The position numbers were made by a program, and so were the translations under genes. The notes beneath the pieces were generated by a model that saw nothing but the letters and a program-made list of their open reading frames with translations, had not been told where the DNA came from and did no database searches. A DNA stretch of 64,000 nt, taken from positions 14,963-78,962 of the forward strand of contig JBGATK010000005.1 in the NCBI GenBank assembly GCA_044229265.1. Direction: 5' to 3'. Positions 19,810 through 56,419 of the stretch are shown one piece after another (within the stretch, counting starts at the first letter, position 1; each line of letters opens with the position of its first letter). The stretch comes from Minisyncoccia bacterium. Its GTDB lineage: Bacteria; Patescibacteriota; Minisyncoccia; Phycocordibacterales; UBA9973.

Positions 19810-20700
19810 TTACTTTAGATTATTAAAAAGTTTTAAGCGGTTTTCTACTACTTTTTCTACAGCTTCTACTCCATGAATTGCTATTTTATATGGTGCAATT
19901 TCATTTGGATTTTCGTGCATGGCTTTATGCTCTGCTTCTACAAAAGCCTGCCTGATTTCACTGTTGATGTGCACGATAGCTACACCAGATGCTATAGCAT
20001 TTGTAAAATCCTCATCACGAAGTCCGGAACCACCGTGAAGCACGAGTGGCACACCTGCTACTTGCCTTATTTGTTTTGCGAGATCAGAATCTATGTGTGG
20101 TTTACCAGTTTTAATTAAACCATGCACAGAACCGATAGATGGAGCAAGTAAATCTATGCCTGTTTCTTCGACAAATCTTTTTGCATCTTCCATTTTGGTT
20201 AAAACACCAGCACCTTCGGGAATGCTTTCTTTGATATCACTACCTTTACCTATGAATCCCAGTTCTGACTCTACTAAAATATCTCTGCCTGTTTGCATAG
20301 ATACTTGTCGTGCGTAATCCACGCATTTTTTTGCAAGAGCTACATTTTCTTCAAATGGCAAACCTGCACTGTCTATAATCACAGCATCGAAACCTGCATC
20401 GATACATTTCTTTACACTTTCAAAATTTTCATGATGATCAGCGTTTAAAAATATCGGGTAATTATCGCGCTCACGAATTGTTTTAACGAGTGCCACTACT
20501 TCTTCGATACCTAAAAATTTCTCTTCTCCTGGTGATACACCAATAATCACAGGCACACTTAAGTTCTTTGCAGCATTATAAATAGCATGCAAGCCTTCTA
20601 AATTTGAAATATTAAAATGCCCTATAGCCACACCCTTTTCCTCTGCTTCTTTTATATACTCGCGCAGTGATTTTAGTTTTTCCATGTAAATATTATACAA
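19810..20700 (-). CDS. fba: Class II fructose/tagatose-bisphosphate aldolase
   Basis: VAIGHFNISNLEG...PVIIGVS and LVLHGGSG class II aldolase motifs. Confidence 0.8.
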   Translation of the reverse strand: MYNIYMEKLKSLREYIKEAEEKGVAIGHFNISNLEGLHAIYNAAKNLSVPVIIGVSPGEEKFLGIEEVVALVKTIRERDNYPIFLNADHHENFESVKKCIDAGFDAVIIDSAGLPFEENVALAKKCVDYARQVSMQTGRDILVESELGFIGKGSDIKESIPEGAGVLTKMEDAKRFVEETGIDLLAPSIGSVHGLIKTGKPHIDSDLAKQIRQVAGVPLVLHGGSGLRDEDFTNAIASGVAIVHINSEIRQAFVEAEHKAMHENPNEIAPYKIAIHGVEAVEKVVENRLKLFNNLK

Positions 20701-41517: not shown

Positions 41518-42747
41518 ATGCACAATCCATTTGAGAATGCCATGGCTCAGCTAGACAAAGTAGCTAAAATAAAAGACTTTGGTAGTGAATTTATAAACCA
41601 ACTACGTGCTCCAAACCGCGACATACGGATTTCTATCCCTGTAAAAATGGACGATGGCACTCAAAGGATTTTTGAAGGCTACAGAGTGGAATATAATGAC
41701 GCTCTTGGACCTTACAAGGGTGGCATTCGTTATCACTCTCTAACTGAAATCAACGAAGTCAAAGCTCTTGCTTTTTGGATGGCTATCAAATGTGCTGTAG
41801 CTGGCATACCTATGGGTGGAGGCAAAGGTGGCATTACTGTTGACCCGAAAGATTTATCCAAAGCTGAACTAGAAAGACTTTCTCGTGGCTGGGTAAAAAG
41901 ACTTTATGAAATACTTGGGCCACATAAAGATGTGCCTGCGCCGGATGTGAATACTACTGGTGAGATAATGAACTGGATGAATGATGAATACATGAAGCTC
42001 TCTGGCGAAAAAACTCTCGCTACTTTTACTGGCAAACCCCTTAGCTCTGGTGGATCAGAAGGCCGTGAGAGTGCTACAGGCCTCGGAGGATACTATGTTT
42101 TTAAAGCTCTGCAAGAAAAACTAGGCTTACCAGAAAAATGCTCTGTAGTTATACAAGGCTTTGGCAATGTAGGCTCTTTTGCCATGAAAAGCTTTGTAAA
42201 TGGAGGACATAAAGTCATGGCTATCTCAGACTCTAAAGGTGGAGTTTACAGTGAAGCTGGGCTTGATTTTGAGGCTTTGGTGGCACACAAAAAGGCTACA
42301 GGGTCGCTCGCAGACTATCCTGGTGCAAAAAATGTAAGTAATGAAGAACTGCTCGAAATACAGTGCGATGTGCTCGTGCCAGCAGCTTTTGAAAATCAAA
42401 TTACAGATAAAAATGCAAATAATATAAAAGCTAAAGTAGTGCTAGAACTTGCAAATGGTCCAACCACACCAGAGGCTGATGAAATACTATCTGGTAAGGG
42501 TATCGCTGTGATTCCTGATGTGCTCGCGAATTCTGGTGGAGTAACTGTCTCGTATTTCGAATGGGATCAAAATTTAAAAAATGAAAAATGGAATGAAGCT
42601 GATGTAAATATCAAGCTAGACGAAATCCTAAAAGATTCTGCAAGTAAAATTTTTGATATTTCAAAAGAACACAATACTACCCTGCGCAACAGCGCTTTTA
42701 TACTAGCCCTCGACAGAATTAAAGCAAAAACCCCGACGCATTTATAA
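41518..42747 (+). CDS. gdhA: Glutamate dehydrogenase (Glu/Leu/Phe/Val dehydrogenase family)
   Basis: KCAVAGIPMGGGKGG catalytic Lys/Gly-rich motif and NAD(P) GFGNVG motif. Confidence 0.9.
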   Translation: MHNPFENAMAQLDKVAKIKDFGSEFINQLRAPNRDIRISIPVKMDDGTQRIFEGYRVEYNDALGPYKGGIRYHSLTEINEVKALAFWMAIKCAVAGIPMGGGKGGITVDPKDLSKAELERLSRGWVKRLYEILGPHKDVPAPDVNTTGEIMNWMNDEYMKLSGEKTLATFTGKPLSSGGSEGRESATGLGGYYVFKALQEKLGLPEKCSVVIQGFGNVGSFAMKSFVNGGHKVMAISDSKGGVYSEAGLDFEALVAHKKATGSLADYPGAKNVSNEELLEIQCDVLVPAAFENQITDKNANNIKAKVVLELANGPTTPEADEILSGKGIAVIPDVLANSGGVTVSYFEWDQNLKNEKWNEADVNIKLDEILKDSASKIFDISKEHNTTLRNSAFILALDRIKAKTPTHL

Positions 42748-42779
42748 AAATGGTCGGGGAGCCGACTTAAACGTCGGCT
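42731..42779. repeat. CCCCGAC-family GC-rich double hairpin (copy A)
   Basis: CCCCGAC-(15 nt)-GTCGGGG immediately followed by AGCCGAC-TTAAAC-GTCGGCT. Overlaps the last gdhA codons and ends 10 bp before the GIY-YIG start. Confidence 0.6.
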
Positions 42780-42788
42780 TGTAATATA

Positions 42789-43049
42789 ATGCCGTGTGTT
42801 TATATATTAAAAAATAAAAATGGAAACTTTTATATAGGTAGCACTATCAATTTAGAAGTTCGTATAAAGCAACACTTATCAGATTATTGTAAAACAACAA
42901 AAAGATTGGGTGCCTACGAGCTGGTATTTCATCAAAATTATGAAAATATAAAAGATGCTAGAAGAATTGAATATAAATTAAAACAATTGAAAAGAAAGGA
43001 TTATATTGCTAATATAATAAAAGATGGTTTTATTAAGATAAAACCATAG
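42789..43049 (+). CDS. Small GIY-YIG nuclease family protein
   Basis: MPCVYILKNKNGNFYIGSTINLEVRIKQH... contains GIY(x10)YIG with a conserved Arg and Glu. 86 aa. Paralogous to 55364..55642. Confidence 0.8.
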   Translation: MPCVYILKNKNGNFYIGSTINLEVRIKQHLSDYCKTTKRLGAYELVFHQNYENIKDARRIEYKLKQLKRKDYIANIIKDGFIKIKP

Positions 43050-43052
43050 TTT

Positions 43053-43125
43053 GGGCGGTTAGCTCAGTTGGTAGAGCGCAATATTGACGTTATTGATGTC
43101 AGAGGTTCGAATCCTCTACCGCCCA
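43053..43125 (+). tRNA. tRNA-Val (anticodon GAC)
   Basis: Acceptor GGGCGGT/ACCGCCC, D-arm GCTC-AGTTGGTA-GAGC, anticodon stem CAATA/TATTG, loop TTGACGT, T-arm AGAGG-TTCGAAT-CCTCT. Starts 4 nt after the GIY-YIG stop. Confidence 0.75.
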
Positions 43126-43197
43126 CTAGAATTGTAATTAGCGGTTTATTCAAAACAAATAGCTTATCGCACACAGAAAATATGCTACTATAAGGAT

Positions 43198-44025
43198 ATG
43201 CAAAATATTCACTTTTTGAATGGGAAATTTGTTAGTGAGGAGGAACTCCTTATCTCCCCTCGAGATTTGGGTTATACGCGTGGTTATGCTGTATTTGATT
43301 TCTTGCGTACTTACAATGGCAAACCATTTCACCTAAGTGAACATATAGAACGACTTTTAAATTCAGCAAAGCTTATTGATCTAAAAATTCCTTATACAAA
43401 AGAAGAAATAGAAAAAATAGTTTTAGAAACTTTAAATAAAAATAATAAAGACACAGAAAAAGCTATTAAAATCATAGCTTCAGGTGGCATTTCGAGCAAA
43501 ATGACTCAAATAGGTTCCCCTACTTTTATGATTTGGATTGATGACATGCCACCTGTGCCACAAGAGTACTATGAAAATGGCATAGGCATAATTACAGTCA
43601 AATACAAAAGATACATGCCAGAAGCTAAAACGAATAATTATATAGAAGGAGTAAAACAAACCCAAATAGCAGAAAGTGTGGGTGCACTCGAGCCGGTGTA
43701 TTTTGACGACGATGGTTTATATGAAAGCTCAAATAGTAATCTTTTTATAATTAAAAATGGCAAAATCTATACTCAAAAAGAAAATATGCTAATTGGTATC
43801 ACTAGGAAAGTTTTAATAGAAATTCTAAAACCTGAATTTATAGTCGAAGAAAAAAATCTAAAAATAGAAGATTTGCTCGGAGCTGATGAAGCATTTTTGA
43901 CAGGCAGTGCCAAAGAGATTTTGCCGATAGTCAAAATAGATGGCAAAATTTTTAGCCTAGGCGTGGTTGGTGAAAATACTAAAAAAATCTTAGAAATATG
44001 GAAGAAATATACAAATAAATATTAA
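43198..44025 (+). CDS. Class IV (branched-chain/D-amino acid) PLP-dependent aminotransferase
   Basis: Fold-type IV aminotransferase length and motifs (..RGYAVFDFLRTYNGKPF...EAFLTGSAKEILPI). Confidence 0.75.
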   Translation: MQNIHFLNGKFVSEEELLISPRDLGYTRGYAVFDFLRTYNGKPFHLSEHIERLLNSAKLIDLKIPYTKEEIEKIVLETLNKNNKDTEKAIKIIASGGISSKMTQIGSPTFMIWIDDMPPVPQEYYENGIGIITVKYKRYMPEAKTNNYIEGVKQTQIAESVGALEPVYFDDDGLYESSNSNLFIIKNGKIYTQKENMLIGITRKVLIEILKPEFIVEEKNLKIEDLLGADEAFLTGSAKEILPIVKIDGKIFSLGVVGENTKKILEIWKKYTNKY

Positions 44026-45167
44026 CTTTCATTAGACAAAGAGTCGTACTTCTTTTCCAATTTACTCTCCCAAAATGATGTTTTAGATCCATTTTTGCGG
44101 GCATCTTGTTCTATGAAAAGAGCATCTTTGTGATCTAACAAATTTATTACCTTAAAACCACCTATCTGAAAATCTGGATGATAAAATTTAATATTTATTT
44201 TCTTTATATTTTTCTCTTGAGTTAATTTTAAAACTTCTTGCATTAAAGAATCATATTCTTCTCTTGAAGATACATCGTTATCTGGTTCATCGGTAATAAG
44301 TAAAATTTCATTATCACTACTGTCTTGTTTTTCTAATTTTGATAATACATGAATCAAAGTACGCAAATGAGCCTCCTGGTTTCCGCCTTCTAAATTTACG
44401 ACTTCAATATTTTTATTGTATGTTTTGTTAATTTCCTGCACTGATTTAATTGCCTCCCCTGCTTCCCCTGCCATAGATTTCGAATGATCTACAATAACTC
44501 TAACTACATTCTTATAAAGGTCTGGAATTTTTTTTATATTATCGGGTTCTATTTCTAAAATCTTTTTTAAAGAAATATCGATACCTTGAGTTCTATCTTT
44601 TAATATTTCTTTCATTTCTTCACTCATATCTTGAATTTGTTCCTCTGTAAAACCCAAATCCAATATGGATTTCTCTAAAGATGAAGATTCTATTTTAATC
44701 TTCTCTATTTCCTCAGGCGAAAAACGTTCAGCTAAAACTTCATTTACCATTTCCAAACCTAATTCCTTTCTTGCTTCACGCAATTCATTATTTTTAGGTG
44801 TAGGCCTTTCTTTAGAACAAAGACCGGTTATGGTTATAATATTTTTTTCAAAATTTACATTTTTTAAGAATTCTCGAATAGCATTCTTGGCATTTTCTCT
44901 AGCATTTGAATCAAAAAATTCCGTAGTGCCTGTTTTGCAAAATTTAGCTATATTCAGACTATCTGAAAATTCTATTTTTTTATTGATATCATAAGTCTCA
45001 GAATCTGATATCTTTGTTTTTTCATTTTTTATTTCAATCTTATTAGGATCTAGTGATTTAGAATCAGAAGCTTTTGTTTCTGTGGCTACACCTAAAGAAC
45101 CAAGCATAGCTGTTCCAACAAGCACCTCTTTTGCATTTTTTCTAAAATTTTTAAAAATATTTTCCAT
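44022..45167 (-). CDS. Secreted von Willebrand factor A (vWA) domain protein
   Basis: Signal peptide, MIDAS-like DHSKSM (DxSxS) and LLITDEPDN motifs. Lies immediately downstream of the NHL giant protein on the same strand. Confidence 0.55.
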   Translation of the reverse strand: MENIFKNFRKNAKEVLVGTAMLGSLGVATETKASDSKSLDPNKIEIKNEKTKISDSETYDINKKIEFSDSLNIAKFCKTGTTEFFDSNARENAKNAIREFLKNVNFEKNIITITGLCSKERPTPKNNELREARKELGLEMVNEVLAERFSPEEIEKIKIESSSLEKSILDLGFTEEQIQDMSEEMKEILKDRTQGIDISLKKILEIEPDNIKKIPDLYKNVVRVIVDHSKSMAGEAGEAIKSVQEINKTYNKNIEVVNLEGGNQEAHLRTLIHVLSKLEKQDSSDNEILLITDEPDNDVSSREEYDSLMQEVLKLTQEKNIKKINIKFYHPDFQIGGFKVINLLDHKDALFIEQDARKNGSKTSFWESKLEKKYDSLSNES

Positions 45168-45181
45168 TAAATCAAAAATAA

Positions 45182-48100
45182 TTAAACCTTAAAATCTTTC
45201 TTTAGATAACCCTTAGTAATTTGAATTCCTTCTTCACTATGGACTTTGGTATAAGAACCGTCAGCATTTTTTTGCTCTATAGAAATATTGTAATTACCAT
45301 TTGGAGCCAAACAGAAATAATTGCCGAGGCGATCGATAATTTTATGAGTAATTTCTGTACCACTTTGCTTAGAGAATACACGTAAAATTCCATAAGCTAT
45401 AGGAGCGCCAATTTTAAACATAGCTTTGCCTTTAGCATTATTACCAAACTCTGTATGATTAAAAGCAAATAATATACCGTAAAGTGCAAATATGATTACA
45501 TTGTAATCTTTAATTTGACTACCGAGCAAAGTGATACCAGAAACAATAAAACCTACTAAAAAGAATATATCTACTATTTGCCCTACTGCTTTATCACTAC
45601 GCTTATACCAACGCAAACGATGTTGTTCTAATTTTGCATATTCATTCCAATCAAAACCTATTCTATCCATAGGAATATTTTTACTAATCACTTCTCCGAA
45701 TTCTTTTATTTCAATATAATTTCCATAATAAAGATCAGTATAAACTTCGTCTCTATCTCTACTATTTAATTTACTTGATGGGAAAACATAATGGGTTTTT
45801 TCAGCAATAATATGATAATGACCTGGCTCTACTAAAAATCCATACCTACCATCTATATCTGTAAAACAAGTTGCTAAAGTTTTCTTTTCTATGTCTACAA
45901 GTTTTAAATACACAGGATCGAGAGGTTGTTTGGTTTGTGAATCAAACACTACGCCCCATGGCTTGTGGCGTTTTTTAATACCAAAACCATAGAGGAACAT
46001 GGACCATGCTCGCATAGCGAGGTCTGTAATTCCAAGTGGATTTGTAAATACAAGTCGCACAAGATTCAGCGCAATAGTAGAAGCAGCTCCTAAAATAACT
46101 AAGGTTTTGGTAATTGCACTACCTAATATATCAGAAATTATTTCAAAAATTCCTTTTCCTGTATTTACACCAGAATTTTCATTTTGGTTTTCGCTACTAG
46201 GATTATTATTAGGATTTTGATTTGGATTATTGCCTGACGGAATATTTGGATTATTTGGTGGCGTATTTGGATTACTTGGATTATTACCTGATCCGCCATT
46301 TGGGGTAGTTGGATTATTATTTGGAGTTGTCGGAGTATTTGGAACAGATGGATTGCCACTTGGTGTATTTGGAGGATTTGTTGGTGGTGTAGGTATTGGA
46401 TTATCTGGAGTATTTGGTGGTATATTTGGATTTGAAGTATCACTATCTGTGGTTGAGACAGAAAAAATTACATCTGCTACACCATCATAACTAGTAGCCG
46501 AAAGTTCATCTATAACAGAAATAATAATATTATAACTTTGATTTCCATCAACCACTCCATCTGAAATACCAGTCAAAGTTATAGTTTGTGGTGTATTCCA
46601 ATTATTATTACTAAAAGTAATAGTTGCCGGCGAAACAGTGCCTTCATTTGTATTGCTAGAAGTAATAGATAAAACTACATCACTAGTGATATTTGATTTT
46701 AGCGATATGGTAAAAGTATCTGTGGTATTTTCAGAAACCATAGTTCCACCCTCTGTATGAACTACATTTATTCCTGGTTGCTGTCCACCGCCTCCACCCC
46801 CACCACCTCCTCCACCAACAGTTTCAGATACATCAAAAACCATAATACGATGATGTCCTGCATCAGCTTCATACAAATAATCATGAACACTATCATATCT
46901 AAGACCATTTGGATTACCTATACCAGATTGAGAAAGAGTAGGACTACCTGTTGTAAAATTTCCTTTACCTAAAACTTTTACCGCATTTTCTCCGTCAATA
47001 ATAGTAGATACATCAAAAGTTAAAACACGGTGATTAGCAACATCGGAAACAAAAAGTGTGTTATCCGAGCTACGCAGAGCAAGACCAAAAGGAAGATTAA
47101 ATTTCGATTGAGTAAGGCCGCTACTTCCAGTAGTAAAATTACTTTGTCCTAAGACATTTACAGCATTTTCGCCGTCAGTTATTGTAGCTACATCAAAGAC
47201 CATGACTCTATGATTATTACCATCAGCTACATAAAGTTTGTGATTAGTATTATCATACAAAACACCAAAAGTTGTATTGAATTTTGCTACTGTATTTCCT
47301 GTAGTTCTAGTAGTAAAATTGTTTTGTCCAATAACATTCACCGCGTTTTCGCCATCAGTGATAGTAGCTACATCAAAAGTTAAAACACGATGATTGTAAG
47401 TATCAGAAACGAAAAGTCTATTATTGGTAGAATCAAAAGATAAACCGTAAGGATAATACATCCTGGATTGAGTTACACCATTTAATGCATTTGTGAAATT
47501 GGGTTGCCCTAAAACATTTACTGCATTTTCACCGTTTACAATAGTAGTAGTATCAAAAACCATTACACGAGAATTTGTGGTATCAGAAACAAAAAGCCTA
47601 TTATTTACATCATCAAAAGCAAGCATAGTCGGATGATTTAATCCGGACTGTGTTGTAGTAGTTTCCCTTGAATTAAAATTAGGCTGACCTAAAACATAGT
47701 CTGGGATACGGTCCATCAGCAGATCATCAGAAGTTAAATTGTAAACTAACACTCTATGATTCCCATTATCTACCACGAATAAACGGTGATTGGTGTGGTC
47801 CATTGCAATATCTACAGGCTGATCGAGTCCTATTGCATTCGGCGTATCTGTAGATGAAAAATAAAACGGAACAGGATCAGTGAAATTGGTGCCATCGTAT
47901 TTACCAATCAAATCAACAGCGTTTTCACCGTTTGTAATAGTAGTTGTATCAAATATCATTATGCGATTATTATTATAATCACCTACGAACAAATAATCAT
48001 TAACTTCATCAAAAGCTAAGCTTTGAGGTGAAATTAATTTAGATTGACTAGTGTTGCCAGTTGAAGTTGTAAAATCTGTTTGACCTAGAACTTTTACTGC

Positions 48101-50356: not shown

Positions 50357-50424
50357 ATAATAATAGCATTACGAGCATTTAAATAAAAGTGGAAAAAAGT
50401 TAGAAAATAAGGTAAGTTAAGATT

Positions 50425-51558
50425 ATGATAGTTTTAAGCATAGAAACCTCGTGCGATGATACGGGCATAAGCATATTAGAAATAAAAGACTTGAGAACCA
50501 AAGCTGTATTTTCAGTATTGGCGAATTTCGTATCTTCCCAAACTGCTATACACTCTCCTTATGGCGGAGTTTTTCCTGCGCTTGCCAAACGTGAACATAT
50601 AAAAAATTTGCCAATATTATTAGAAAAAGCTCTAAAAAAAGCAAAAATTAAAATAGAGGATTTAGATTTAATTTGTGTGACAAGTGGCCCAGGACTCGAA
50701 CCTGCTCTTTGGACTGGAATAGTCTTTGCTAAAGAACTAACCAAAAAATACAAAATTCCCATAACTGCTGTAAACCATATGGAAGGCCACATACTATCTG
50801 TATTTGCAAAAAGTAAAAATTTTGAAATTCCAAAAGAGGCAAGCAAGGTAGGATTTCCTATGATTTCGCTTTTAGTTTCGGGCGGGCATACTGAACTTGT
50901 ATTAGTAGAAGCTTGGGGTAAATACAAGATTTTAGGCAAAACTCTCGACGACGCTGTTGGTGAAGCTTTCGATAAGGTAGCGCGCATGCTAGGCCTGCCA
51001 TACCCTGGAGGACCAGAAATTTCAAAATTAGCAGAAGAAAATAGGAAGATTGTGAATTTAAGAACCCTTGCGCAGGCTGACGAGCCGAGCAGAGCAATTT
51101 TTCAGCAGAAAAATATGCGTGGTGAGAAAATTCATAATCTTCCTATTTTCACCCTCCCTCGCCCAATGATGTATAGCAAAGATTTTAATTTCTCATATTC
51201 AGGACTCAAAACTGCAGTACTATATTTAATAAAAAAAATTGATGTTTTAGATGAAAATACAAAAAAAGCTATAGCATTAGAATTTGAAAATGCAGCCATA
51301 GAACCACTATTACATAAAACTAAAAAAGCTATAGAAAAATACAATGCAAAAACATTAATTGTCGGCGGAGGTGTAGCTCAAAATAAACATTTACAAAGAA
51401 TCTTAAAAAAAGAAATAAAAAAAACTAAAATCTTCTTCCCTGTTCGTGCTTTAGCTTCTGACAACGCTCTGATGATAGGTATTGCTGGCACACTATCATA
51501 TCTCAAGAAAAAAAAATCGTCAAAAAATGTAAAAGCCGAGGGTAATCTATCATTGTAA
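50425..51558 (+). CDS. tsaD: tRNA N6-adenosine threonylcarbamoyltransferase TsaD
   Basis: MIVLSIETSCDDTGISILE N-terminus and Kae1/TsaD HxEGH metal motif (NHMEGH). Confidence 0.85.
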   Translation: MIVLSIETSCDDTGISILEIKDLRTKAVFSVLANFVSSQTAIHSPYGGVFPALAKREHIKNLPILLEKALKKAKIKIEDLDLICVTSGPGLEPALWTGIVFAKELTKKYKIPITAVNHMEGHILSVFAKSKNFEIPKEASKVGFPMISLLVSGGHTELVLVEAWGKYKILGKTLDDAVGEAFDKVARMLGLPYPGGPEISKLAEENRKIVNLRTLAQADEPSRAIFQQKNMRGEKIHNLPIFTLPRPMMYSKDFNFSYSGLKTAVLYLIKKIDVLDENTKKAIALEFENAAIEPLLHKTKKAIEKYNAKTLIVGGGVAQNKHLQRILKKEIKKTKIFFPVRALASDNALMIGIAGTLSYLKKKKSSKNVKAEGNLSL

Positions 51559-51609
51559 AAAAATAAATTTTTATTTGGAAAAACATACTAAAAATGTTAT
51601 ATTTTTTAT

Positions 51610-53766
51610 ATGGAAATTAATGAAAAATTACTAAAACCTTATAATGCAAAAGACACCGAGGGCAGAATTTACAAGGAATGGGAAGATTCTGGTTTTTTCA
51701 ATCCAGATGTATGTATAGAAAAAGGCGTCATACCTAGCACCGCTGAAGCATTTTCTATTGTACTTCCCCCACCAAATGCAACTGGAGTCCTCCACCTCGG
51801 CCACGCACTCGAGACTTCAATGCAAGACGCTATGATACGCTACAATCGTATGCAAGGTAAAAAAACCTTATGGCTTCCAGGAACTGATCACGCAGCCATA
51901 GCTACTGATGCCAAAGTTACCAAAATTTTAGAAAAAGAAGGTTTAAAAAAGAAAGATATTGGCAGAGAAAAATTTTTGGAGAGAGTAGAGGTATTTGTAG
52001 AAGATAGTAGGAAAACTATTACAAGCCAACTTCGAAACATGGGTGCTAGCCTAGATTGGTCACGTGAAGCTTTTACCTTAGATGAAAAAAGGCATATTGC
52101 CGTAAATACTGCTTTCAAAAAAATGTACGATGATGGTTTAATTTATCGCGGGCACCGTATTGTAAACTGGGATCCCAAAGGCCAAACTGTAATTTCTGAC
52201 GACGAATTAGTTTACGAAGAAAAAAAGGGTAAATTTTATACTTTTAAGTATGGTCCATTCAATATAGGCACTGCCCGCCCTGAAACAAAATTTGGCGATA
52301 AATATGTAGTAATGCATCCAGATGATATTCGTTATAAAGAATATATGCATATGCAGAAAATAAATTTAGAATGGATAAATGGCCCGATTGAGGCGACTAT
52401 TATTAAAGATGAAATGATAGATATGGAATTCGGCACAGGAGTCATGACCATTACTCCATGGCACAGCCACGAAGACTTTGCTCTAGCAGAAAAATATAAA
52501 TTAGAAAAAGAGCAAATTATCGACAAATACGGCAAGCTACTCCCTATCGCTGGTGAATTCGCAGGTATGAAAATAAGTGATGCGAGAGAAAAAATTGTAG
52601 AAAAATTAAAAGAAAAAGGTTTACTTGTGTCAGTAGACGAAAACTATACAAATCGTGTAGCTACTGCCGAGCGCACTGGTGGCACAATAGAGCCTCAAAT
52701 CATGGAGCAATGGTTTATAGATGTAAATAAAAAAATAAAAGACAGAGACAATAAATCTCTCAAAGAGCTCATGCTATCTCCTGTGCAAAATAGCGAAATA
52801 AAAATCCTACCAGATAGATTTGAAAAAGTGTATTACAACTGGGTAGAAAATTTACGCGACTGGTGTATTTCAAGGCAGATTTGGTATGGACACAGAATTC
52901 CTGTTTGGTATCGAGGGGAAGAAATTTTTGTAGGAGAAAATCCAGGCGAAAATTGGACTCAAGACCCTGATAGCCTAGACACATGGTTCTCTTCTGGACT
53001 TTGGACCTTTTCTACGCTAGGCTGGCCAGAAAATACAAATGACTTAAAAAAATTCCACCCGACAAGTGTTGTGAATCCTGGATATGAAATTCTATTCTTT
53101 TGGGTTGCTCGTATGATACTTATGTCTAAATATTTGCTAGACGAAATTCCATTTAAAACAGTTTATCTACACGGCATGCTTCGTGATGCAAAGGGTCAAA
53201 AGTTCAGCAAGTCACTGGATAATGGCATAGACCCAATAAAAGTTATTGAAGAATACGGAGCTGATGCACTGCGTATGTCGCTCATCGTTGGCATTGCTCC
53301 TGGTATGGATAGTAAATTCGATATTCAAAAAGTAAAAGCTTACAGTAAATTTGCAAATAAGATCTGGAATGCAACTCGTTTTGTCTTAGAACAAACACAA
53401 GACCTAGATTTAAATAATTTAGCAAATACAGATTTAGACGAAGAAGACAAAAAGTCTCAGGAAGAATTAAATAAACTTTTGCAAGAAATAACATTAGAAA
53501 TGGAAGAATATAAATTCTACATAGTTGCTGAAAAGCTTTACCATTATTTTTGGCATACTTTTGCAGACATAATAATTGAACGCTCAAAAAAGAAAATTTT
53601 AGAAAATAACAACACAAAAAGTGCTAAAACTATACTTGTAATGCAACTAGAAATACTAATTAAAGCTCTTCACCCATTTATGCCTTTTGTTACAGAAGAG
53701 CTTTGGGCTATAATGAATAAGAAGGATATGCTAATGGTATCTCCTTGGCCAACAAATAATGTTTAG
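51610..53766 (+). CDS. valS: Valyl-tRNA synthetase (short form)
   Basis: PPPNATGVLHLGHA (HIGH), ...WLPGTDHAAIAT, and KFSKS (KMSKS). 718 aa, lacking the C-terminal coiled-coil. Confidence 0.85.
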   Translation: MEINEKLLKPYNAKDTEGRIYKEWEDSGFFNPDVCIEKGVIPSTAEAFSIVLPPPNATGVLHLGHALETSMQDAMIRYNRMQGKKTLWLPGTDHAAIATDAKVTKILEKEGLKKKDIGREKFLERVEVFVEDSRKTITSQLRNMGASLDWSREAFTLDEKRHIAVNTAFKKMYDDGLIYRGHRIVNWDPKGQTVISDDELVYEEKKGKFYTFKYGPFNIGTARPETKFGDKYVVMHPDDIRYKEYMHMQKINLEWINGPIEATIIKDEMIDMEFGTGVMTITPWHSHEDFALAEKYKLEKEQIIDKYGKLLPIAGEFAGMKISDAREKIVEKLKEKGLLVSVDENYTNRVATAERTGGTIEPQIMEQWFIDVNKKIKDRDNKSLKELMLSPVQNSEIKILPDRFEKVYYNWVENLRDWCISRQIWYGHRIPVWYRGEEIFVGENPGENWTQDPDSLDTWFSSGLWTFSTLGWPENTNDLKKFHPTSVVNPGYEILFFWVARMILMSKYLLDEIPFKTVYLHGMLRDAKGQKFSKSLDNGIDPIKVIEEYGADALRMSLIVGIAPGMDSKFDIQKVKAYSKFANKIWNATRFVLEQTQDLDLNNLANTDLDEEDKKSQEELNKLLQEITLEMEEYKFYIVAEKLYHYFWHTFADIIIERSKKKILENNNTKSAKTILVMQLEILIKALHPFMPFVTEELWAIMNKKDMLMVSPWPTNNV

Positions 53767-54442
53767 TGACCCAAAAATTTTAGGATTAGCTTTTATAGGA
53801 GGAACTGTTCCTGCTCTGATTTGGCTGTGGTTTTGGCTTAAAGAAGACAAGCATAACAAGGAACCTCGTGGACTTCTAACTATGATATTTATCATGGGTA
53901 TGCTCGGAGTGATATTAGTTTTACCTATACAAAAAATAATTCAAAATATCGGATTCTCTTCTGACACAGAAACTATTCTCTGGGCACTAGCAGAAGAATT
54001 AATAAAATTTTTAGCTATAATTGTTGTCTTAGTTAAGACTAACTTTATAGATGAACCTGTAGATTGGCCAGTTTATCTAATAACCGGAGCGCTAGGCTTT
54101 GCTGCACTTGAAAATAGTCTTTTTATTTTAAAACCACTTTCACTAGGTGATGCAACTGTAAGTATAGTAACTAGCCAGCTTCGCTTCCTCGGTTCGACAT
54201 TGCTTCACGCTGTATCTAGTGGAATCTTGGGAGTTTTTCTTGGACTTGCCTTCCATTTAAAACCATTTTTCAAAAAAATTTATTTTCTTTGTGGAATTAT
54301 TTTTGCAACCGCCTTGCATAGTATCTTTAATTTTTTTATAATTAAAGGAGATGGTAATAATTTTCTAGAAACTTTAGCTTTCCTTTGGGTTATCACCATT
54401 ATACTCATGCTACTTTTCGAAAAATTACGAAGAATGAGTTAG
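53759..54442 (+). CDS. PrsW-family intramembrane metalloprotease-like protein
   Basis: Polytopic protein with EELIK (EExxK), LLHAVSSG and HSIFN (HxxxN) motifs. Confidence 0.5.
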   Translation: MFSDPKILGLAFIGGTVPALIWLWFWLKEDKHNKEPRGLLTMIFIMGMLGVILVLPIQKIIQNIGFSSDTETILWALAEELIKFLAIIVVLVKTNFIDEPVDWPVYLITGALGFAALENSLFILKPLSLGDATVSIVTSQLRFLGSTLLHAVSSGILGVFLGLAFHLKPFFKKIYFLCGIIFATALHSIFNFFIIKGDGNNFLETLAFLWVITIILMLLFEKLRRMS

Positions 54443-54474
54443 TAATTAATATTTTTAATAAACAAAACAAAACT

Positions 54475-54936
54475 ATGAGTAAAAAAAGAAGTTTTTTTGA
54501 AAGATTAACAGGTAGTATAAATGTCGATGAAGAGATCGAAGAAGAAAAGCCCACAAAAGGAAATGACAAGAAAGGTGGTATGGAATGGATGGAAGAAGAA
54601 AATGAAGAAGCGGAGCTAGCTGTCGATGTATACCAAACTCGCTCTGATATCGTAATACAGACCATGGTAGCTGGTGTAAAGCCTGAAGACCTAGACCTGA
54701 CTATCGCTCGCGATATGGTTACCATAAAAGGTAAACGTGAAGAAAATAAAAATATCGATGATGATGATTATTTTACTAAAGAGTTATACTGGGGCGCATT
54801 TACTCGCACCATTCTCCTACCTCAAGAAATAGAACCAGAAGAAACTGAAGCCACAGAAAAACATGGCCTACTCACCATCAAACTCCAAAAAATAGATAAA
54901 GAAAAGAAAACTTCTGTGAAAGTTAAATCTTTGTAG
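54475..54936 (+). CDS. Hsp20/alpha-crystallin small heat-shock protein (start set to MSKKR)
   Basis: Alpha-crystallin domain (VDVYQTRSDIVIQTMVAGVKPEDLDLTI...GLLTIKLQK). The ORF-track start at 54385 overlaps the upstream gene. Confidence 0.8.
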   Translation: MSKKRSFFERLTGSINVDEEIEEEKPTKGNDKKGGMEWMEEENEEAELAVDVYQTRSDIVIQTMVAGVKPEDLDLTIARDMVTIKGKREENKNIDDDDYFTKELYWGAFTRTILLPQEIEPEETEATEKHGLLTIKLQKIDKEKKTSVKVKSL

Positions 54937-54955
54937 CAAAAACTTAAATTGATAC

Positions 54956-55297
54956 ATGCGATCAGTTTTACATGCAAAAATTCATAAAGCCACAGTAACG
55001 GAAGCAGATTTGAGCTATATCGGTAGTATTACTATTGATCAAGAATTAGCCGAAAAGGTTGGCCTTTGGGATGGCGAAAAAGTCATGGTGGTTTCTAATA
55101 CCTCGGGTAACCGCCTAGAAACTTATGTAATCTACGGAGCTAGGAATTCTGGCATCATATGCATGAACGGCGCCGCAGCTCACCTAATAAAAAAAGGAGA
55201 TGAAATAATAATTATGGGCTTTGAACTTACAGATAAACCCATCAAAGCTACCAACATACTTGTCGATAAACAAAACAAATTTGTTAAGTTTTTGTAA
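54956..55297 (+). CDS. panD: Aspartate 1-decarboxylase (pyruvoyl-dependent)
   Basis: MRSVLHAKIHKATVTEADLSYIGSITID matches the PanD N-terminus including the Gly-Ser self-cleavage site. 113 aa. Confidence 0.9.
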   Translation: MRSVLHAKIHKATVTEADLSYIGSITIDQELAEKVGLWDGEKVMVVSNTSGNRLETYVIYGARNSGIICMNGAAAHLIKKGDEIIIMGFELTDKPIKATNILVDKQNKFVKFL

Positions 55298-55298
55298 A

Positions 55299-55373
55299 TG
55301 GTGCCGGGGGTGAGAATCGCACTCACGACCTATCCCTCTTCAGGGGAGAGCTCTACTACTGAGCTACCCCGGC
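55299..55373 (-). tRNA. tRNA-Phe-like (anticodon GAA), non-canonical features
   Basis: Minus-strand sequence GCCGGGGTAGCTCAGTAGTAGAGCT CTCCC CTGAAGA GGGAT AGGTC GTGAG TGCGATT CTCAC CCCCGGC A CCA. CCA is encoded. There is a C-U mismatch at 27-43, G at position 37 and G at T-loop position 55. Confidence 0.6.
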
Positions 55374-55642
55374 ATTTTTATTTTAACAAAACCATCTTTT
55401 ACTATCTTCTCTATGTAATCATGTCTTTTAAATTTTTTCAACCTTTTCTCAATATATCTTACCTCACTCAATGTTTCAAATTTTTGTGAAAAAACTAATT
55501 TTAATTTTCCCATCTTACTGGTTGAAGGTGTATAACCTCCATTATGATGCCTAATTCTTTCATCTATATCAGTAGTGCTACCTATATAGTAATTCCCCTT
55601 TTCACTTTGTAATATATATACGTATGGCATATATTTTAACAC
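55364..55642 (-). CDS. Small GIY-YIG nuclease family protein (paralog of 42789..43049)
   Basis: MPYVYILQSEKGNYYIGSTTDIDERIRHH..., ending in KDGFVKIKMPG. The last three codons and stop overlap nt 1-10 of the tRNA. An alternative start at 55630 gives MPYVYIL, as in the paralog. Confidence 0.8.
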   Translation of the reverse strand: MLKYMPYVYILQSEKGNYYIGSTTDIDERIRHHNGGYTPSTSKMGKLKLVFSQKFETLSEVRYIEKRLKKFKRHDYIEKIVKDGFVKIKMPG

Positions 55643-55644
55643 TG

Positions 55645-55698
55645 AGCCCCGACGCTTTCGGTCGGGATCCCGACTTTACGTCGGGGCTACCCCGGCAT
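55645..55698. repeat. CCCCGAC-family nested palindrome (copy C) plus a 13-bp duplicate of the tRNA 5' end
   Basis: AGCCCCGAC-GCTTTCG-GTCGGGA|TCCCGAC-TTTAC-GTCGGGGCT, then GCTACCCCGGCAT (55686-55698), which is identical to 55363-55375 at the tRNA 5' end. Confidence 0.6.
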
Positions 55699-55712
55699 AT
55701 ATGAATAATAGA

Positions 55713-55958
55713 TTAAGGCACTAAATCTTTTAATTTTTGAAAAGATGAATTGGTTTCTTTTACTGTGTTTTGCAATTGCTCTACAAAAGGTTGTAGAAAA
55801 TAAAAAGTACCAACTGAAACACCTACAATCAAAATCCAATAAAAAATCTTAAAAAATAGGTTCCATTTTTGGATGCCTCTTACTTTTTTAAGCATTTCAT
55901 TGTTCTCTTTTACTAATGCTAAAGTTTCCTCTAGCATTTGCTTTTCTTCTGTATCCAC
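55713..55958 (-). CDS. Small membrane protein, unknown function
   Basis: 81 aa with an N-terminal coiled/charged region and one hydrophobic helix. Confidence 0.35.
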   Translation of the reverse strand: MDTEEKQMLEETLALVKENNEMLKKVRGIQKWNLFFKIFYWILIVGVSVGTFYFLQPFVEQLQNTVKETNSSFQKLKDLVP

Positions 55959-55982
55959 TCAAATATATTATCATAAAGAATT

Positions 55983-56013
55983 AAAAAAGCCAACTTGGGT
56001 ATTTGGCTTTTTT
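55983..56013. terminator. Bidirectional hairpin terminator
   Basis: AGCCAA-CTTGGGTAT-TTGGCT flanked by AAAAA and TTTTT. Confidence 0.45.
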
Positions 56014-56053
56014 ATGTTAAATTATATAAGGTTTTTTATTGTTTCGCCCTCAT

Positions 56054-56095
56054 AGCCCCGACGTAAAGTCGGGGAGCCGACAAGTATCGTCGGCT
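56054..56095. repeat. CCCCGAC-family double hairpin (copy B), solo copy upstream of tRNA-Arg
   Basis: AGCCCCGAC-GTAAA-GTCGGGG followed by AGCCGAC-AAGTATC-GTCGGCT. Same architecture as copy A. It ends 15 bp before the tRNA 5' end. Confidence 0.6.
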
Positions 56096-56110
56096 TTCAA
56101 TAGACAAAGC

Positions 56111-56182
56111 GTCCTTGTAGTTAAATGGATATAACTTCCCCGTCCTAAGGGGACATTGCAGGTCCGATTCCTGCCAAGGACA
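56111..56182 (+). tRNA. tRNA-Arg (anticodon CCT)
   Basis: Acceptor GTCCTTG/CAAGGAC, D-arm GTTA-AATGGATA-TAAC, anticodon stem TCCCC/GGGGA, loop GTCCTAA, T-arm GCAGG-TCCGATT-CCTGC (C at position 55). No CCA encoded. Confidence 0.7.
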
Positions 56183-56185
56183 CAA

Positions 56186-56419
56186 TTAGACTCCCAAAAG
56201 ACTCGATATTTTTTGTTTATCAAAACCTACGATTAAATCATTCTCTATAAGTATAACTGGCACGCCTAACTGGCCGGATTTTTCTACCATTTCTTTGCGT
56301 TTATCCATATCACTCGCTACATCGTGCTCGGTATAAGCTACATTGTTTTCTTTAAAGAACTCTTTCGCCATTTGGCAAAAATGACAACTAGGTGTGGAAT
56401 ATATTGTTACGTTTTTCAT
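56186..56419 (-). CDS. Glutaredoxin/NrdH-like thiol-disulfide protein
   Basis: 77 aa with CHFC active site and a thioredoxin fold (TIYSTPSCHFCQMAKEF). Confidence 0.75.
   Translation of the reverse strand: MKNVTIYSTPSCHFCQMAKEFFKENNVAYTEHDVASDMDKRKEMVEKSGQLGVPVILIENDLIVGFDKQKISSLLGV

Follow-up and report, generated by a model that had tools for sequence, protein, structure and literature searches.

REP/REPIN sequences are short, GC-rich, dispersed palindromes of extragenic DNA, often arranged as inverted doublets, and the RAYT gene, which encodes a HUH/Y1 transposase, is flanked by REPs. Mitochondrial hairpin elements coexist with GIY-YIG and LAGLIDADG homing genes. The mitochondria of fungi and sponges, whose genomes are compact and AT-rich, carry GC clusters, double-hairpin elements and repetitive hairpin-forming elements, all of them single or double hairpins rich in GC; these lie in intergenic DNA (in the sponge Suberites, many on the 5' side of tRNA genes), in ORFs and in rRNA genes, and reportedly stay in transcripts (PMC2800124). 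Rickettsia palindromic elements (RPE), of about 100-150 bp and found in Rickettsia only, are inserted in frame in housekeeping genes (PMC10969869). SegB of phage T4 is a GIY-YIG homing endonuclease encoded in a tRNA gene cluster; it cleaves the tRNA gene region and is inherited with flanking tRNA genes (PMC2330249, PMC13096335). GIY-YIG ORFs have also been described in CPR rRNA genes, in non-intron insertion sequences at the tops or bases of stem-loops (PMC11270868), and a term search of that text found no mention of tRNAs, hairpins or palindromes.

The DNA analysed here is a 64,000-nucleotide stretch from a Minisyncoccia bacterium (the window), which carries three copies of a GC-rich double hairpin (DH) next to tRNA genes. 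We favour, with a probability of roughly 0.65, the reading that a GIY-YIG cassette with hairpin junctions targets tRNA genes and is accompanied by solo, MITE- or RPE-like hairpin copies. Like the mitochondrial elements, DH is a GC-rich double hairpin of an AT-rich genome, found in intergenic DNA, in ORFs and 5' of tRNA genes. Unlike DH, the mitochondrial elements belong to another domain of life and have other sequences, and neither a fixed combination of hairpin, nuclease ORF and tRNA nor split tRNA 5' remnants have been reported for them. Like the rRNA insertions, which come from the same bacterial group, the DH cassettes have GIY-YIG ORFs inserted in structured-RNA genes, but those insertions sit in rRNA genes (PMC11270868). 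No earlier description of a hairpin-tRNA-GIY-YIG cassette was found in the searchable literature.

Double hairpins at three tRNA genes of the window

A covariance model made from 104 related copies and run over the 64 kb with filters off found exactly three DH copies, and the remainder of the window gave no other match above 6.5 bits. The parts of the three loci are as follows.

42728..42781, + strand: DH copy 1 (53.0 bits, E 1.1e-11; -29.4 kcal/mol, z -6.7)
42789..43049, + strand: GIY-YIG ORF 1, 86 aa, single domain, UPF0213/SLX1-like (Pfam PF01541, 8.5e-16)
43053..43126, + strand: intact tRNA-Val(GAC), downstream partner of module 1 (ARAGORN; Rfam tRNA 68.6 bits)
55686..55696, - strand: tRNA-Phe 5' remnant, positions 1-11, GCCGGGGTAGC (direct reading of the minus strand)
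55645..55689, - strand: DH copy 2 (54.4 bits, E 4.9e-12)
55364..55630, - strand: GIY-YIG ORF 2, 88 aa (Pfam PF01541, 5.3e-14)
55299..55373, - strand: intact tRNA-Phe(GAA), downstream partner of module 2 (ARAGORN; Rfam 64 bits)
56046..56056, + strand: diverged tRNA 5' remnant GCCCTCATAGC (sequence reading; compared by eye with tRNA-Arg(CCT) of L176 and L144)
56053..56097, + strand: DH copy 3, solo, without GIY-YIG ORF (54.3 bits, E 5.1e-12; -26.3 kcal/mol, z -5.8)
56111..56183, + strand: intact tRNA-Arg(CCT), downstream of the solo DH (ARAGORN; Rfam 56.4 bits)

All three copies are built alike, as two hairpins in tandem: CCCGAC-loop-GTCGGG-NNN-CCGAC-loop-GTCGG. The fold energies of the loci are -26 to -29 kcal/mol, with z-scores of -6.7 at locus 1, -2.9 to -3.8 at locus 2 and -5.8 at locus 3, and the GC content of the elements is 50-67% against 30-39% for the window. 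The window has seven CCCCGAC sites where 0.94 would be expected, six of them inside the DH loci, which also hold all six occurrences of CCGAC-N3-16-GTCGG (0.04 expected). An earlier, sequence-only reading had taken both CCCCGAC and GCCGAC as the shared arms; the former is indeed concentrated at the three loci, whereas GCCGAC by itself is not enriched in the window (12 against 6.9 expected). The three loci that it delimited are real, except that 55690-55698 lies outside the palindrome and is part of the tRNA-Phe 5' remnant.

DH copy 1 (CCCCGACG-loop-GTCGGGG, then AGCCGAC-loop-GTCGGCT) overlaps the end of the glutamate dehydrogenase ORF (42747) by its last five codons and stop codon. ORF 1 begins 8 nt past this copy and closes with a stop codon whose end is 3 nt short of tRNA-Val. 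At locus 2 the remnant GCCGGGGTAGC, which has the same sequence as the beginning of the intact tRNA-Phe, stands directly 5' of DH copy 2, which splits the remnant at about positions 10/11; the remnant then resumes as CTCAGTG (55646-55640). The final codons of ORF 2, ATG CCG GGG TAG, are positions -2 to 10 of tRNA-Phe, so that its stop codon is U8-A9-G10 of the tRNA (55366-55364). An 81-aa ORF lies upstream of this locus. At locus 3 the remnant GCCCTCATAGC, directly 5' of DH copy 3, is unlike the adjoining intact tRNA (acceptor strand GTCCTTG) and resembles the 5' ends of other tRNA-Arg(CCT) genes, e.g. GCCCTCGTAG in L176. The DH is followed there by TTCAATAGAC, a decayed remainder of the D-arm, and a short spacer. 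Loci 1 and 2, in which only a GIY-YIG ORF separates the DH from tRNA-Val or tRNA-Phe, are full cassettes; locus 3, 15 nt from tRNA-Arg, is an ORF-less version. The sequence-only reading had missed that the hairpins are embedded in leftover tRNA 5' fragments, and also that hairpins, GIY-YIG ORF and intact tRNA form a mobile module.

None of the three copies is followed by a T-run of five or more, in keeping with the earlier statement that they are not ordinary terminators. A terminator scan called none of them on the forward strand and, on the reverse strand, gave one weak 5-pair stem (42766-42753) within copy 1. In Rfam 15, searched over the window, the gathering score was reached by tRNAs alone, with no described RNA family for DH, and the sub-threshold matches in 55280-56200 included none that was meaningful.

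Fold and spread of the DH family

A single 22-base pattern matches the three copies of the window and at least 118 loci in species-representative genomes, and at least 92 of the loci listed carry CPR/Patescibacteria labels. The family, with elements of about 40-50 nt, is spread across the CPR (Patescibacteria), so that the dispersed palindrome family first proposed from the window is a real one. Pairs that the search pattern left free covary among the 104 copies: columns 4-31 (CG 63, UA 34), columns 32-54 (UA 42, CG 39, AU 13) and columns 33-53 (CG 56, GC 22, UA 20). Cells with both sides changed number 173 against 49 in shuffles, and none of 500 shuffles reached that value. This covariation supports the tandem-hairpin fold.

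A second arrangement, with one hairpin nested inside the other, had been described from the window. We rejected it, since the nested model scores like shuffled data over the 104 copies; nesting is an alternative fold, which is possible at the second locus because all four arms there are CCCGAC/GTCGGG.

GIY-YIG cassettes at tRNA genes

The context of the family was sampled at 80 loci of the small UPF0213/SLX1-like GIY-YIG subfamily, fetched by protein motifs alone. A same-strand tRNA was found within 60 nt after the ORF at 63 of the 69 loci with enough flank (91%), one or more hairpins in the 150 nt that precede the ORF at 59 of 69 (86%), and a covariance-model match just upstream of the ORF at 63 of 80 (79%). 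The location at tRNA 5' flanks, which holds for all three window copies, is therefore general, and the association with GIY-YIG genes that the sequence-only reading had proposed to check is strongly positive. Where present, the DH is always about 10-70 nt from the GIY-YIG start codon. Beside the DH, 43 of 70 loci have a copy of the first 11 nt of the tRNA with at most two mismatches, against about 2 of 70 by chance according to our own estimate. The DH is a clean insertion in this remnant at tRNA position 10/11 (about 21 loci), 13 (3 loci) or 15/16 (11 loci). Like that of ORF 2, the stop codon of the ORF is inside the tRNA at 33 of 70 related loci. Target-site duplications and an insertion consensus were looked for at the DH copies and were not found. 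Excision of the DH restores a full tRNA in only 4 of 265 hairpin clusters, and each of these four lies next to an intact gene for that same tRNA; a tRNA intron, expected in a gene that is otherwise complete and the sole copy, was rejected for DH on this ground.

The subfamily proteins are 85-90 aa long and consist of the catalytic domain only. Y5, Y15, G17, R25 and E61 are invariant in eight sequences, and the subfamily profile matches PDB 1zg2 and 1ywl (UPF0213) first and SLX1 next, while the match to TIGR01453 covers residues 3-38 only and is below the cut-off. Like SegB, they have a GIY-YIG catalytic domain with the conserved Tyr, Tyr, Arg and Glu, and their genes lie among or next to tRNA genes. 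Unlike SegB, they are of the UPF0213/SLX1 branch without a DNA-binding module, and the separate C-terminal DNA-binding domain that gives I-TevI and the Seg proteins their site specificity is absent from them. The cassette also differs from SegB, a phage gene, in being chromosomal and CPR-wide, in having its ORF fused to the tRNA 5' end, and in the conserved double hairpin that splits the tRNA 5' remnant at the junction. The proteins group by the anticodon of their tRNA (62.7% against 51.7% identity, a difference not attained by any of 2,000 label permutations), although 21 different anticodons are used across the loci. The closest homologues of ORF 2, whose partner is tRNA-Phe, are 84% and 75% identical and lie at tRNA-Thr in a different gene neighbourhood.

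The proS-rpsB-tsf-hyp-tRNA-Thr locus was compared between genomes. It is occupied by the cassette in L204-L207 and empty in L210-L212, where spacers of 33-53 nt have no DH at E<=1; in L208/L209, whose EF-Ts is 95% identical to that of L205, only the last 21 GIY-YIG codons are left. The occupied, empty and degenerate states at orthologous loci mean that the cassette has been gained or lost, the two directions not being separable from one locus. Like free-standing homing genes, the cassette is present or absent at an otherwise conserved locus and leaves degenerate copies.

In the favoured reading, DH would form the junction of a tiny mobile cassette whose target is the stretch of a tRNA gene that codes for the D-arm. 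The full cassette consists, in this order, of a 5' fragment left over from the resident tRNA (positions 1-10 or 1-15), the DH with a few more D-arm bases, the 86-90-aa GIY-YIG ORF and an intact tRNA, which would keep the host viable. From the retained catalytic residues and the structure-specific SLX1/UPF0213 branch we infer a protein that would break DNA in or beside the D-arm, or hairpin DNA; repair of the break may then copy either the whole cassette or just the DH from a donor, as in homing. The stop codon of the ORF often falls within the tRNA, and for this reason processing by RNase P would limit expression of the putative nuclease. If the D-arm were the sole recognition element, the cassette would be self-cleaving, because the adjoining intact tRNA has an uninterrupted D-arm. 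It also speaks against the cassette model that the 5' remnant matches the local tRNA even though cassettes change tRNA species.

At most loci the DH is on the upstream side only, and at 14 of about 70 a DH cluster also follows the intact tRNA. Seven of these both-side loci were read by eye. In five (L193, L167, L169, L152 and L185) near-identical direct repeats flank the GIY-YIG ORF and intact tRNA, while the copies of L125 differ more, and in four of the five one can recognise the outer sequences as the 5' and 3' parts of one tRNA type. The upstream 5' piece of L193 (GGGCACT) pairs 7/7 with the downstream 3' piece (AGTGCCC), whereas the intact tRNA between them has a different acceptor (GCGTCCT/AGGACGC); the outer pieces can be shown to be the two halves of a single older tRNA. 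L125 agrees, with a compensatory difference at pair 7:66, and L205 has serial remnants. These loci would fit an att-like recombination site, at which a circle carrying a single DH together with the GIY-YIG gene and a tRNA would recombine, DH-by-DH, into a tRNA gene holding a solo DH and so rescue the disrupted tRNA, in the manner of poison and antidote. We regard this as very unlikely in view of the prevalence of upstream-only copies and the near absence of DH-interrupted complete tRNA genes (the four restorable clusters above); GIY-YIG enzymes are not known to be recombinases. The split tRNAs of L193 and L125 speak for the favoured cassette reading too; it counts against that reading that a DH cluster follows the intact tRNA at only these 14 loci and that clear half-matching of the outer tRNA pieces was seen in just one or two of them.

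Solo copies in protein genes and intergenic DNA

At least 12 verified DH copies are in frame inside conserved ORFs of other CPR genomes, namely those of EF-G, GatB, SecA, Pth, HisRS, L4, PIF1, FBA, an exonuclease, SMC/RecN, XerC/D and RsmH. The insert adds about 13-18 residues (in EF-G, 18 aa relative to solved structures); in ten proteins Pfam domains span it, with a gap at that point in orthologues. DH copies also occur in intergenic DNA in many contexts. The resemblance to REP and RPE sequences noted earlier was thus apt. Like RPEs, the DH elements are palindromic selfish repeats in frame in unrelated housekeeping genes of a reduced genome, which are not destroyed by them. They are set apart from RPEs by size and host (40-50 nt, CPR), and RPEs have neither a known linked nuclease gene nor tRNA targeting. 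Like REP/REPIN, the DH elements are GC-rich palindromes in many copies with two mirror-image hairpin units, a dedicated nuclease gene is flanked by the repeat, and most copies are non-autonomous. Unlike REP/REPIN, they are not confined to extragenic DNA, are tied specifically to tRNA D-arm sequences and have a core sequence conserved across the whole superphylum; the gene next to them, in the window and at the 63 of 80 loci, encodes a GIY-YIG protein (PF01541) and not a HUH/Y1 transposase.

About 95% of the DNA-pattern matches listed have no adjoining GIY-YIG gene, so that mobilisation in trans has to be assumed for the cassette model. The same figure would suit an independent selfish MITE- or REP-like element, moved by another enzyme or by recombination, that piles up where it is harmless, including the defunct tRNA 5' ends that a GIY-YIG homing cassette unrelated to it left behind, and on this view the GIY-YIG protein does not act on DH. 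The many contexts in ORFs and intergenic DNA, and an unrelated second palindrome family in the same genomes that is also inserted in frame, agree with such independence. We nevertheless consider it unlikely. The linkage is too tight and positional for passive build-up, with DH at 79-86% of GIY-YIG loci at its narrow distance from the start codon; the remnant is entered in two or three exact registers, remnants without DH are rare, and the two copies of both-side loci are near-identical in the five loci named above.

A host function in cis is about as improbable as the att-like site. DH would then serve the tRNA/GIY-YIG unit by terminating or insulating transcription independently of a U-tract, by directing RNA processing or stability, or by binding a protein, and its spread would reflect that function. 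Its place 5' of this unit is constant and often 3' of a preceding gene (gdh at locus 1, the 81-aa ORF at locus 2), the hairpins are very stable with covarying stems, and canonical terminator-like sites are not enriched in the region (13 against 9.4 in shuffles). Against this, three copies among the many transcription units of 64 kb do not make a general terminator, and a terminator inside the essential ORFs of SecA, EF-G, L4 and HisRS would be harmful. The hairpins also break up tRNA pseudo-fragments and not plain spacer, the empty orthologous tRNA-Thr loci work without DH, and none of the Rfam families matches. An ordinary intrinsic terminator was rejected on the lack of a U/T tract, the copies inside these and other ORFs, and the three copies per 64 kb.

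The favoured cassette reading may be carried further, as a tentative proposal that we rate somewhat below even odds. The cassettes and solo hairpins might form an unrecognised class of mobile element, with a minimal 86-90-aa GIY-YIG nuclease of SLX1/UPF0213 type as mobiliser and a folded DNA double hairpin, or the hairpin-prone DNA of the tRNA D-arm, as substrate in place of a linear sequence. The autonomous form would break a tRNA gene and supply the replacement, which is addiction-like, while the non-autonomous hairpins would colonise the proteomes of the smallest bacterial genomes. If true, this would be a GIY-YIG counterpart of the REPIN-RAYT partnership and would give the widespread UPF0213/YhbQ-like proteins their first biological role.

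The palindrome inserted in gatB of the window (21031-21085) had been taken for a diverged relative of DH. It gives no match to the DH model even at E<=10 and is a member of the second palindrome family; a further genome (L114) contains a near-identical copy of it.

Double hairpins in the window and across genomes

The genomes of the CPR/Patescibacteria are among the most streamlined, and few mobile elements are thought to be present in them besides rRNA introns. In the window, which is AT-rich (30 to 39% GC per 2 kb), three GC-rich palindromic loci form a real family of double-hairpin (DH) elements. CCCCGAC occurs 7 times against 0.94 expected, with 6 of the 7 inside these loci, and CCGAC-N3-16-GTCGG occurs 6 times against 0.04 expected, two at each locus. 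Read toward the downstream gene, all three share the pattern CCCGAC-N5-15-GTCGGG-NNN-CCGAC-N6-7-GTCGG and are predicted to fold into two neighbouring hairpins (-26 to -29 kcal/mol). A covariance model run over the 64 kb with filters off returned exactly three copies (E ~1e-11 to 1e-12 each), and the best other score anywhere in the window was at most 6.5 bits. The copies and their associated open reading frames are as follows.

DH copies (placed by the covariance model) and GIY-YIG ORFs of the window
42728-42781, plus strand: DH copy 1
42789-43049, plus strand: GIY-YIG ORF 1, 86 aa, starting 8 nt past DH copy 1 and ending 3 nt ahead of tRNA-Val
55645-55689, minus strand: DH copy 2
55630-55364, minus strand: GIY-YIG ORF 2, 88 aa, after DH copy 2
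56053-56097, plus strand: DH copy 3

The sequence-only reading had described two arrangements, two tandem hairpins or one hairpin nested inside another. Locus 2 can indeed be drawn as a hairpin within a hairpin because all four of its arms share one sequence. We examined covariation in 104 distinct CPR copies at stem positions that the search pattern had left free. Columns 4-31 pair as CG (63) or UA (34), columns 32-54 as UA (42), CG (39) or AU (13), columns 33-53 as CG (56), GC (22) or UA (20), and the inner extension 12-24 as CG (58), AU (8) or UA (7). Cells changed on both sides numbered 173 compared with 49 in shuffles, a value reached by 0 of 500 shuffles, and pairing collapsed when partner columns were shifted by one to three. 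The nested model did no better on these copies than on shuffled data, two informative outer pairs being unpaired in 47/104 and 43/104 sequences, and it was rejected. What the copies conserve is therefore a tandem pair of hairpins, with a near-invariant unpaired G after the first CCCGAC and a mirror-image C before the last GTCGG. No Rfam family matches DH.

As the sequence-only reading had noted, none of the three window copies is followed by a T-run, and a terminator scan of the forward strand called none of them; on the reverse strand it called a single weak 5-pair stem (42766-42753) inside copy 1. Between an 81-aa ORF and DH copy 3, at 55985-56015, lies a hairpin of the classical terminator type, preceded by an A-run and followed by a T-run (AAAAAAGCCAAcTTGGGTATTTGGCTTTTTT), so the organism has ordinary T-tract hairpins, distinct from DH.

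The family is dispersed well beyond the window. A 22-base pattern scanned against one genome per species found at least 118 loci. Among the 118 matches listed, at least 92 were CPR/Patescibacteria by record title (Saccharibacteria, Paceibacterota, Nomura-, Kaiser-, Berkel-, Doudna-, Wolfe-, Adler-, Taylor-, Yanofsky- and Gottesmanbacteria, and Minisyncoccia), 8 were unclassified 'bacterium' MAGs, and about nine were very GC-rich genomes with the appearance of chance matches. Carriage by phages was considered and rejected: the pattern matched at only 4 places in 2.9 million viral contigs, each of them a GC-rich chance match lacking tRNA or module context. Three retrieved loci from 'uncultured Gammaproteobacteria' records (L031, L070, L087) are contigs of 46-53% GC with typical DH copies, and in L087 a DH splits a tRNA-Met 5' remnant; either these bins are mislabelled or contaminated, or DH also occurs outside CPR. 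Double hairpins with variant arms, TCCCGAC...GTCGGGATGCCGAC...GTCGGCAT, were seen away from tRNA genes in one Bacteroidetes MAG (L050 2904-2940, L093 1072-1108) and in Terrimonas (L065 7625-7663), and could be a non-CPR family related to DH or a case of convergence.

Module architecture: tRNA remnant, DH, GIY-YIG gene and intact tRNA

Locus 1 overlaps the final codons and stop of the glutamate dehydrogenase gene. The first hairpin of copy 1 (42733-42750) supplies the five C-terminal codons (T P T H L) together with the stop codon; DH copy 1 has remodelled the C-terminus of the host enzyme. Directly 5' of DH copy 2, GCCGGGGTAGC exactly matches positions 1-11 of tRNA-Phe, and 3' of the copy the tRNA-Phe sequence resumes as CTCAGTG; the hairpins therefore split a leftover tRNA-Phe 5' fragment. 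The final codons of ORF 2, ATG CCG GGG TAG, coincide with the first ten bases of the intact tRNA-Phe, so that its stop codon (55364-55366) is U8-A9-G10 of the tRNA. There is no ORF at locus 3, which is separated from the downstream tRNA-Arg(CCT) by 15 nt. The sequence around its DH, GCCCTCATAGC[...]TTCAATAGAC, is a tRNA-Arg-like 5' fragment that has decayed and is closer to other tRNA-Arg(CCT) alleles (L176) than to the adjoining tRNA gene.

The proximity to tRNA genes seen at the three window copies recurred in other genomes, where about 19 of ~120 pattern-found copies lay 12-100 nt from a tRNA gene, 18 upstream and 2 downstream. Beside a tRNA gene, the hairpins sit within an incomplete copy of the 5' portion of that tRNA, in two main registers: NNNNNNN-TAG[DH]CTCAGTTGG, at position 10/11 in the D-stem, or ...TAGCTCAG[DH]TTGGTAGAG, at position 15/16 in the D-loop. 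The remnant is followed by a spacer of 4-45 nt and then by the intact tRNA (examples are L105, L113, L075, L038, L087, L063, L056, L027, L022 and L009). DH is not an intron of functional tRNAs, since among 265 hairpin clusters only 4 gave a complete tRNA once the DH was removed, each beside an intact copy. No target-site duplication or insertion consensus beyond chance was found flanking DH, the only preference being A at -3 and T at +3/+4. Such remnants are also where DH would be found if it were an independent MITE accumulating in harmless tRNA fragments, a reading that we consider unlikely. Hairpin units are found at further tRNA positions as well. In L159/L160 (~1418-1500) a pseudo-tRNA-Pro keeps positions 1-27 and a single CCCCGAC hairpin replaces the anticodon arm, and in L119 (~1940-2030) a pseudo-tRNA-Lys has two, one within its D-stem and one 3' of the anticodon, both of them DHs.

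The GIY-YIG ORFs of pattern-selected loci fell into two groups, of which the tRNA-associated one has the C-terminal motif LKKLKRKDYIEKIVKDGFIKI. For an unbiased set, 80 loci were retrieved from metagenome contigs using two peptide motifs of the tRNA-associated subfamily alone; the query of the metagenome search was a 4-sequence GIY-YIG alignment. The association with GIY-YIG genes that the window had hinted at was borne out, with a covariance-model match directly upstream of the ORF in 63/80 loci, mostly in the ORF orientation. Where enough flank was available, a same-strand tRNA started within 60 nt of the ORF end in 63/69 loci (91%), and at least one CCGAC...GTCGG hairpin lay within 150 nt upstream in 59/69 (86%), with two or more hairpins in 44. 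The first 11 nt of the downstream tRNA were repeated beside the hairpins with at most 2 mismatches in 43/70 loci, compared with ~2/70 that we estimate by chance. In split alignments DH interrupts the tRNA sequence cleanly, at position 9-12 (22 loci), 13 (3), 15/16 (11) or 20-23 (3). Homology to the tRNA stops 5-12 nt past DH, and the start codon follows 3-34 nt further on. In 33/70 loci the ORF has no stop of its own and ends at the TAG of tRNA positions 8-10. Upstream of the GIY-YIG ORF in L144, L150, L176, L140/L141 and L168, each hairpin loop holds an extra CCGAC...GTCGG, giving elements of 58-72 nt; these nested elements suggest that DH is able to insert into itself.

The GIY-YIG protein is a bare catalytic domain in which Y5, Y15, G17, R25 and E61 are invariant in the 8 sequences compared. 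Among solved structures it is closest to the UPF0213 proteins 1zg2 and 1ywl, then to SLX1, I-TevI and UvrC, and its named database homologues are all from CPR, under generic names only. We know of no established function for stand-alone UPF0213/SLX1-like GIY-YIG proteins, and the module offers this orphan family a concrete candidate substrate. At the GIY-YIG loci 21 different anticodons are used. Proteins at tRNAs with the same anticodon are more alike (62.7% vs 51.7% identity; difference reached by 0 of 2,000 label permutations), and close protein pairs at different tRNAs also occur.

Split resident tRNAs, polymorphic loci and proposed mechanism

In 14 loci a DH cluster follows the intact tRNA within 130 nt. 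Where such loci were inspected by eye, the sequence beyond the second DH is the 3' portion of a tRNA of matching type. The two DH copies were near-identical in 5 of the 7 pairs compared by eye (L193, L167, L169, L152, L185) and differed more in L125. Acceptor-stem pairings of L193 and L125 were read by hand. In L193 the upstream 5' fragment GGGCACT pairs 7/7 with the downstream 3' fragment AGTGCCC, and the intact tRNA-Val between them has another stem, GCGTCCT/AGGACGC. In L125 the fragments share G7:C66 and the intact tRNA-Phe has A7:T66. ARAGORN was too permissive to discriminate chimeric half-tRNAs, as controls scored too. At these loci, an older resident tRNA has been split in the D-arm by a DH-bounded segment made up of a GIY-YIG gene and a replacement tRNA. 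DH might also be read here as an att-like recombination site, which seems to us quite improbable.

ORF 2, which lies at tRNA-Phe beside panD, has its closest homologues (84% and 75% identical) next to tRNA-Thr(TGT), downstream of proS-rpsB-tsf-hyp. Relatives of this locus were retrieved through EF-Ts and fell into three states.

States of the tRNA-Thr locus
Occupied: L204, L205-L207; DH and GIY-YIG gene present
Empty: L210, L211, L212; EF-Ts 78-80% identical, tRNA-Thr 33-53 nt after hyp, no ORF, no DH at E<=1
Degenerate: L208 (3735-3832) and L209 (same sequence); EF-Ts 95% identical to that of L205

In L208/L209, a deletion of ~400 nt took the remnant, DH and two-thirds of the ORF, and left its last 21 codons (LKNLKRHDYIEKIVNDGFIKI*) before tRNA-Thr. 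In L205, the native upstream spacer, common to L210, abuts the outermost 5' remnant. The insertion was therefore made inside the tRNA gene, with the intact tRNA displaced downstream. L205 also has, ahead of one GIY-YIG gene, two tRNA-Thr 5' remnants in series (2877-2992), the first (GCCACCTTAGCTCAG) with a truncated hairpin and the second (CCGGCATAGCTCAG) with a full DH, which suggests repeated invasion or rearrangement at one site. The three states fit the pattern of invasion, decay and loss expected of homing-type elements. Empty-site relatives of the window tRNA-Phe/tRNA-Arg locus, sought via PanD, were not found, as synteny is not kept; PanD itself is ~80% identical across many lineages. 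The window panD (54956-55297) encodes a protein 79-81% identical to homologues labelled as Woesearchaeota/Nanoarchaeota/Nanoarchaeia MAGs (P0217, P0229, P0246, P0253, P0275, P0309), which may be due to transfer of the gene between DPANN archaea and CPR, or to errors in binning.

We infer that the GIY-YIG protein, a putative nuclease, makes the initiating break. Its target would be folded DNA, either an extruded D-arm or a DH hairpin, rather than a long linear site, because its branch includes the structure-specific nuclease SLX1 and the insertion registers match the stem/loop boundaries of the D-arm. Repair from a donor locus would copy DH and the ORF along with either the 5' part of the tRNA or all of it, and the 5' end of the resident tRNA would stay behind as the remnant. 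Solo copies could arise when DH alone is copied into other breaks. Where the ORF stop lies inside the tRNA, an RNase P cut at the tRNA 5' end would yield a non-stop mRNA, plausibly a brake on nuclease expression; an unusual coupling of nuclease expression to tRNA processing is predicted from the overlap.

In-frame copies, related elements and a second palindrome family

Solo copies occur inside protein genes. Roughly a third of the CPR copies, by crude ORF calling, are in frame within long ORFs and encode peptides such as PRRPEGSGSRPQASG, APTPKGRGSDRSVG and SRRKVGTPTKASG. Twelve in-frame insertions were verified, in keeping with the earlier comparison to RPE-type elements. In EF-G (L116), ~18 extra residues lie between the conserved TxxxW and NIIDTPGH when compared with solved EF-G structures, and GatB of L106 has a DH where the window GatB has none. 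The remaining ten verified hosts, in which Pfam domains extend across the insert, are SecA, peptidyl-tRNA hydrolase, HisRS, ribosomal protein L4, PIF1 helicase, class II aldolase, an exonuclease, an SMC/RecN ATPase, a XerC/D recombinase and RsmH. Copies inside ORFs of essential genes, the few copies per genome segment and the functional empty sites argue against DH being a host regulatory, terminator or processing structure, to which we give little credence; copy number and ORF-internal copies rule out a general terminator.

In-frame insertion of this kind is like that described for Rickettsia palindromic elements (PMC10969869) and like the comparable behaviour of mitochondrial GC clusters and double-hairpin elements (PMC2800124). 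The nearest report to the module deals with non-intron insertions in CPR rRNA genes that contain GIY-YIG ORFs (PMC11270868), and the paper mentions neither tRNAs nor hairpins. In the literature on CPR palindromic or mobile elements, GIY-YIG, tRNA and the DH motif we found no description of DH or of the module, with coverage incomplete and an earlier report possible. We class the module as a homing-endonuclease cassette with MITE/REP-like hairpins; both kinds are known, and their association is unusual and specific. A superphylum-wide selfish system in tRNA genes, with hairpin peptides of 13-18 residues in such essential proteins as SecA, EF-G, HisRS and L4, would change the interpretation of these streamlined genomes and of the unusual insertions in their proteins. 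Annotation is affected at tRNA pseudo-fragments, short 'hypothetical' ORFs and ORF ends, such as the gdh stop within a hairpin. The nuclease could also serve as a compact tool specific for structure or for tRNA genes.

The window gatB (minus-strand ORF 20693-22180) has an in-frame insertion of ~20 residues (...SPHPQPLSWTGEGGRRSGEVG...) at 21031-21085, which is absent from GatB of L106. The sequence-only reading had taken this palindrome for a possible diverged relative. The covariance model of DH gave no match to it at E<=10, and its GC-rich pattern is CCTCACCC...CCCTCTCC-loop-GGAGAGGG...GGGTGAGG; it belongs to a second family of inserted palindromes and is no diverged DH. A Paceibacterota MAG has a near-identical copy (L114 3963-4016), and related CCTCTCC...GGAGAGG...GGGTGAGG elements occur at eight other places in seven other loci (L029, L062, L072, L148, L151, L170 with two, and L065 from a Terrimonas genome).
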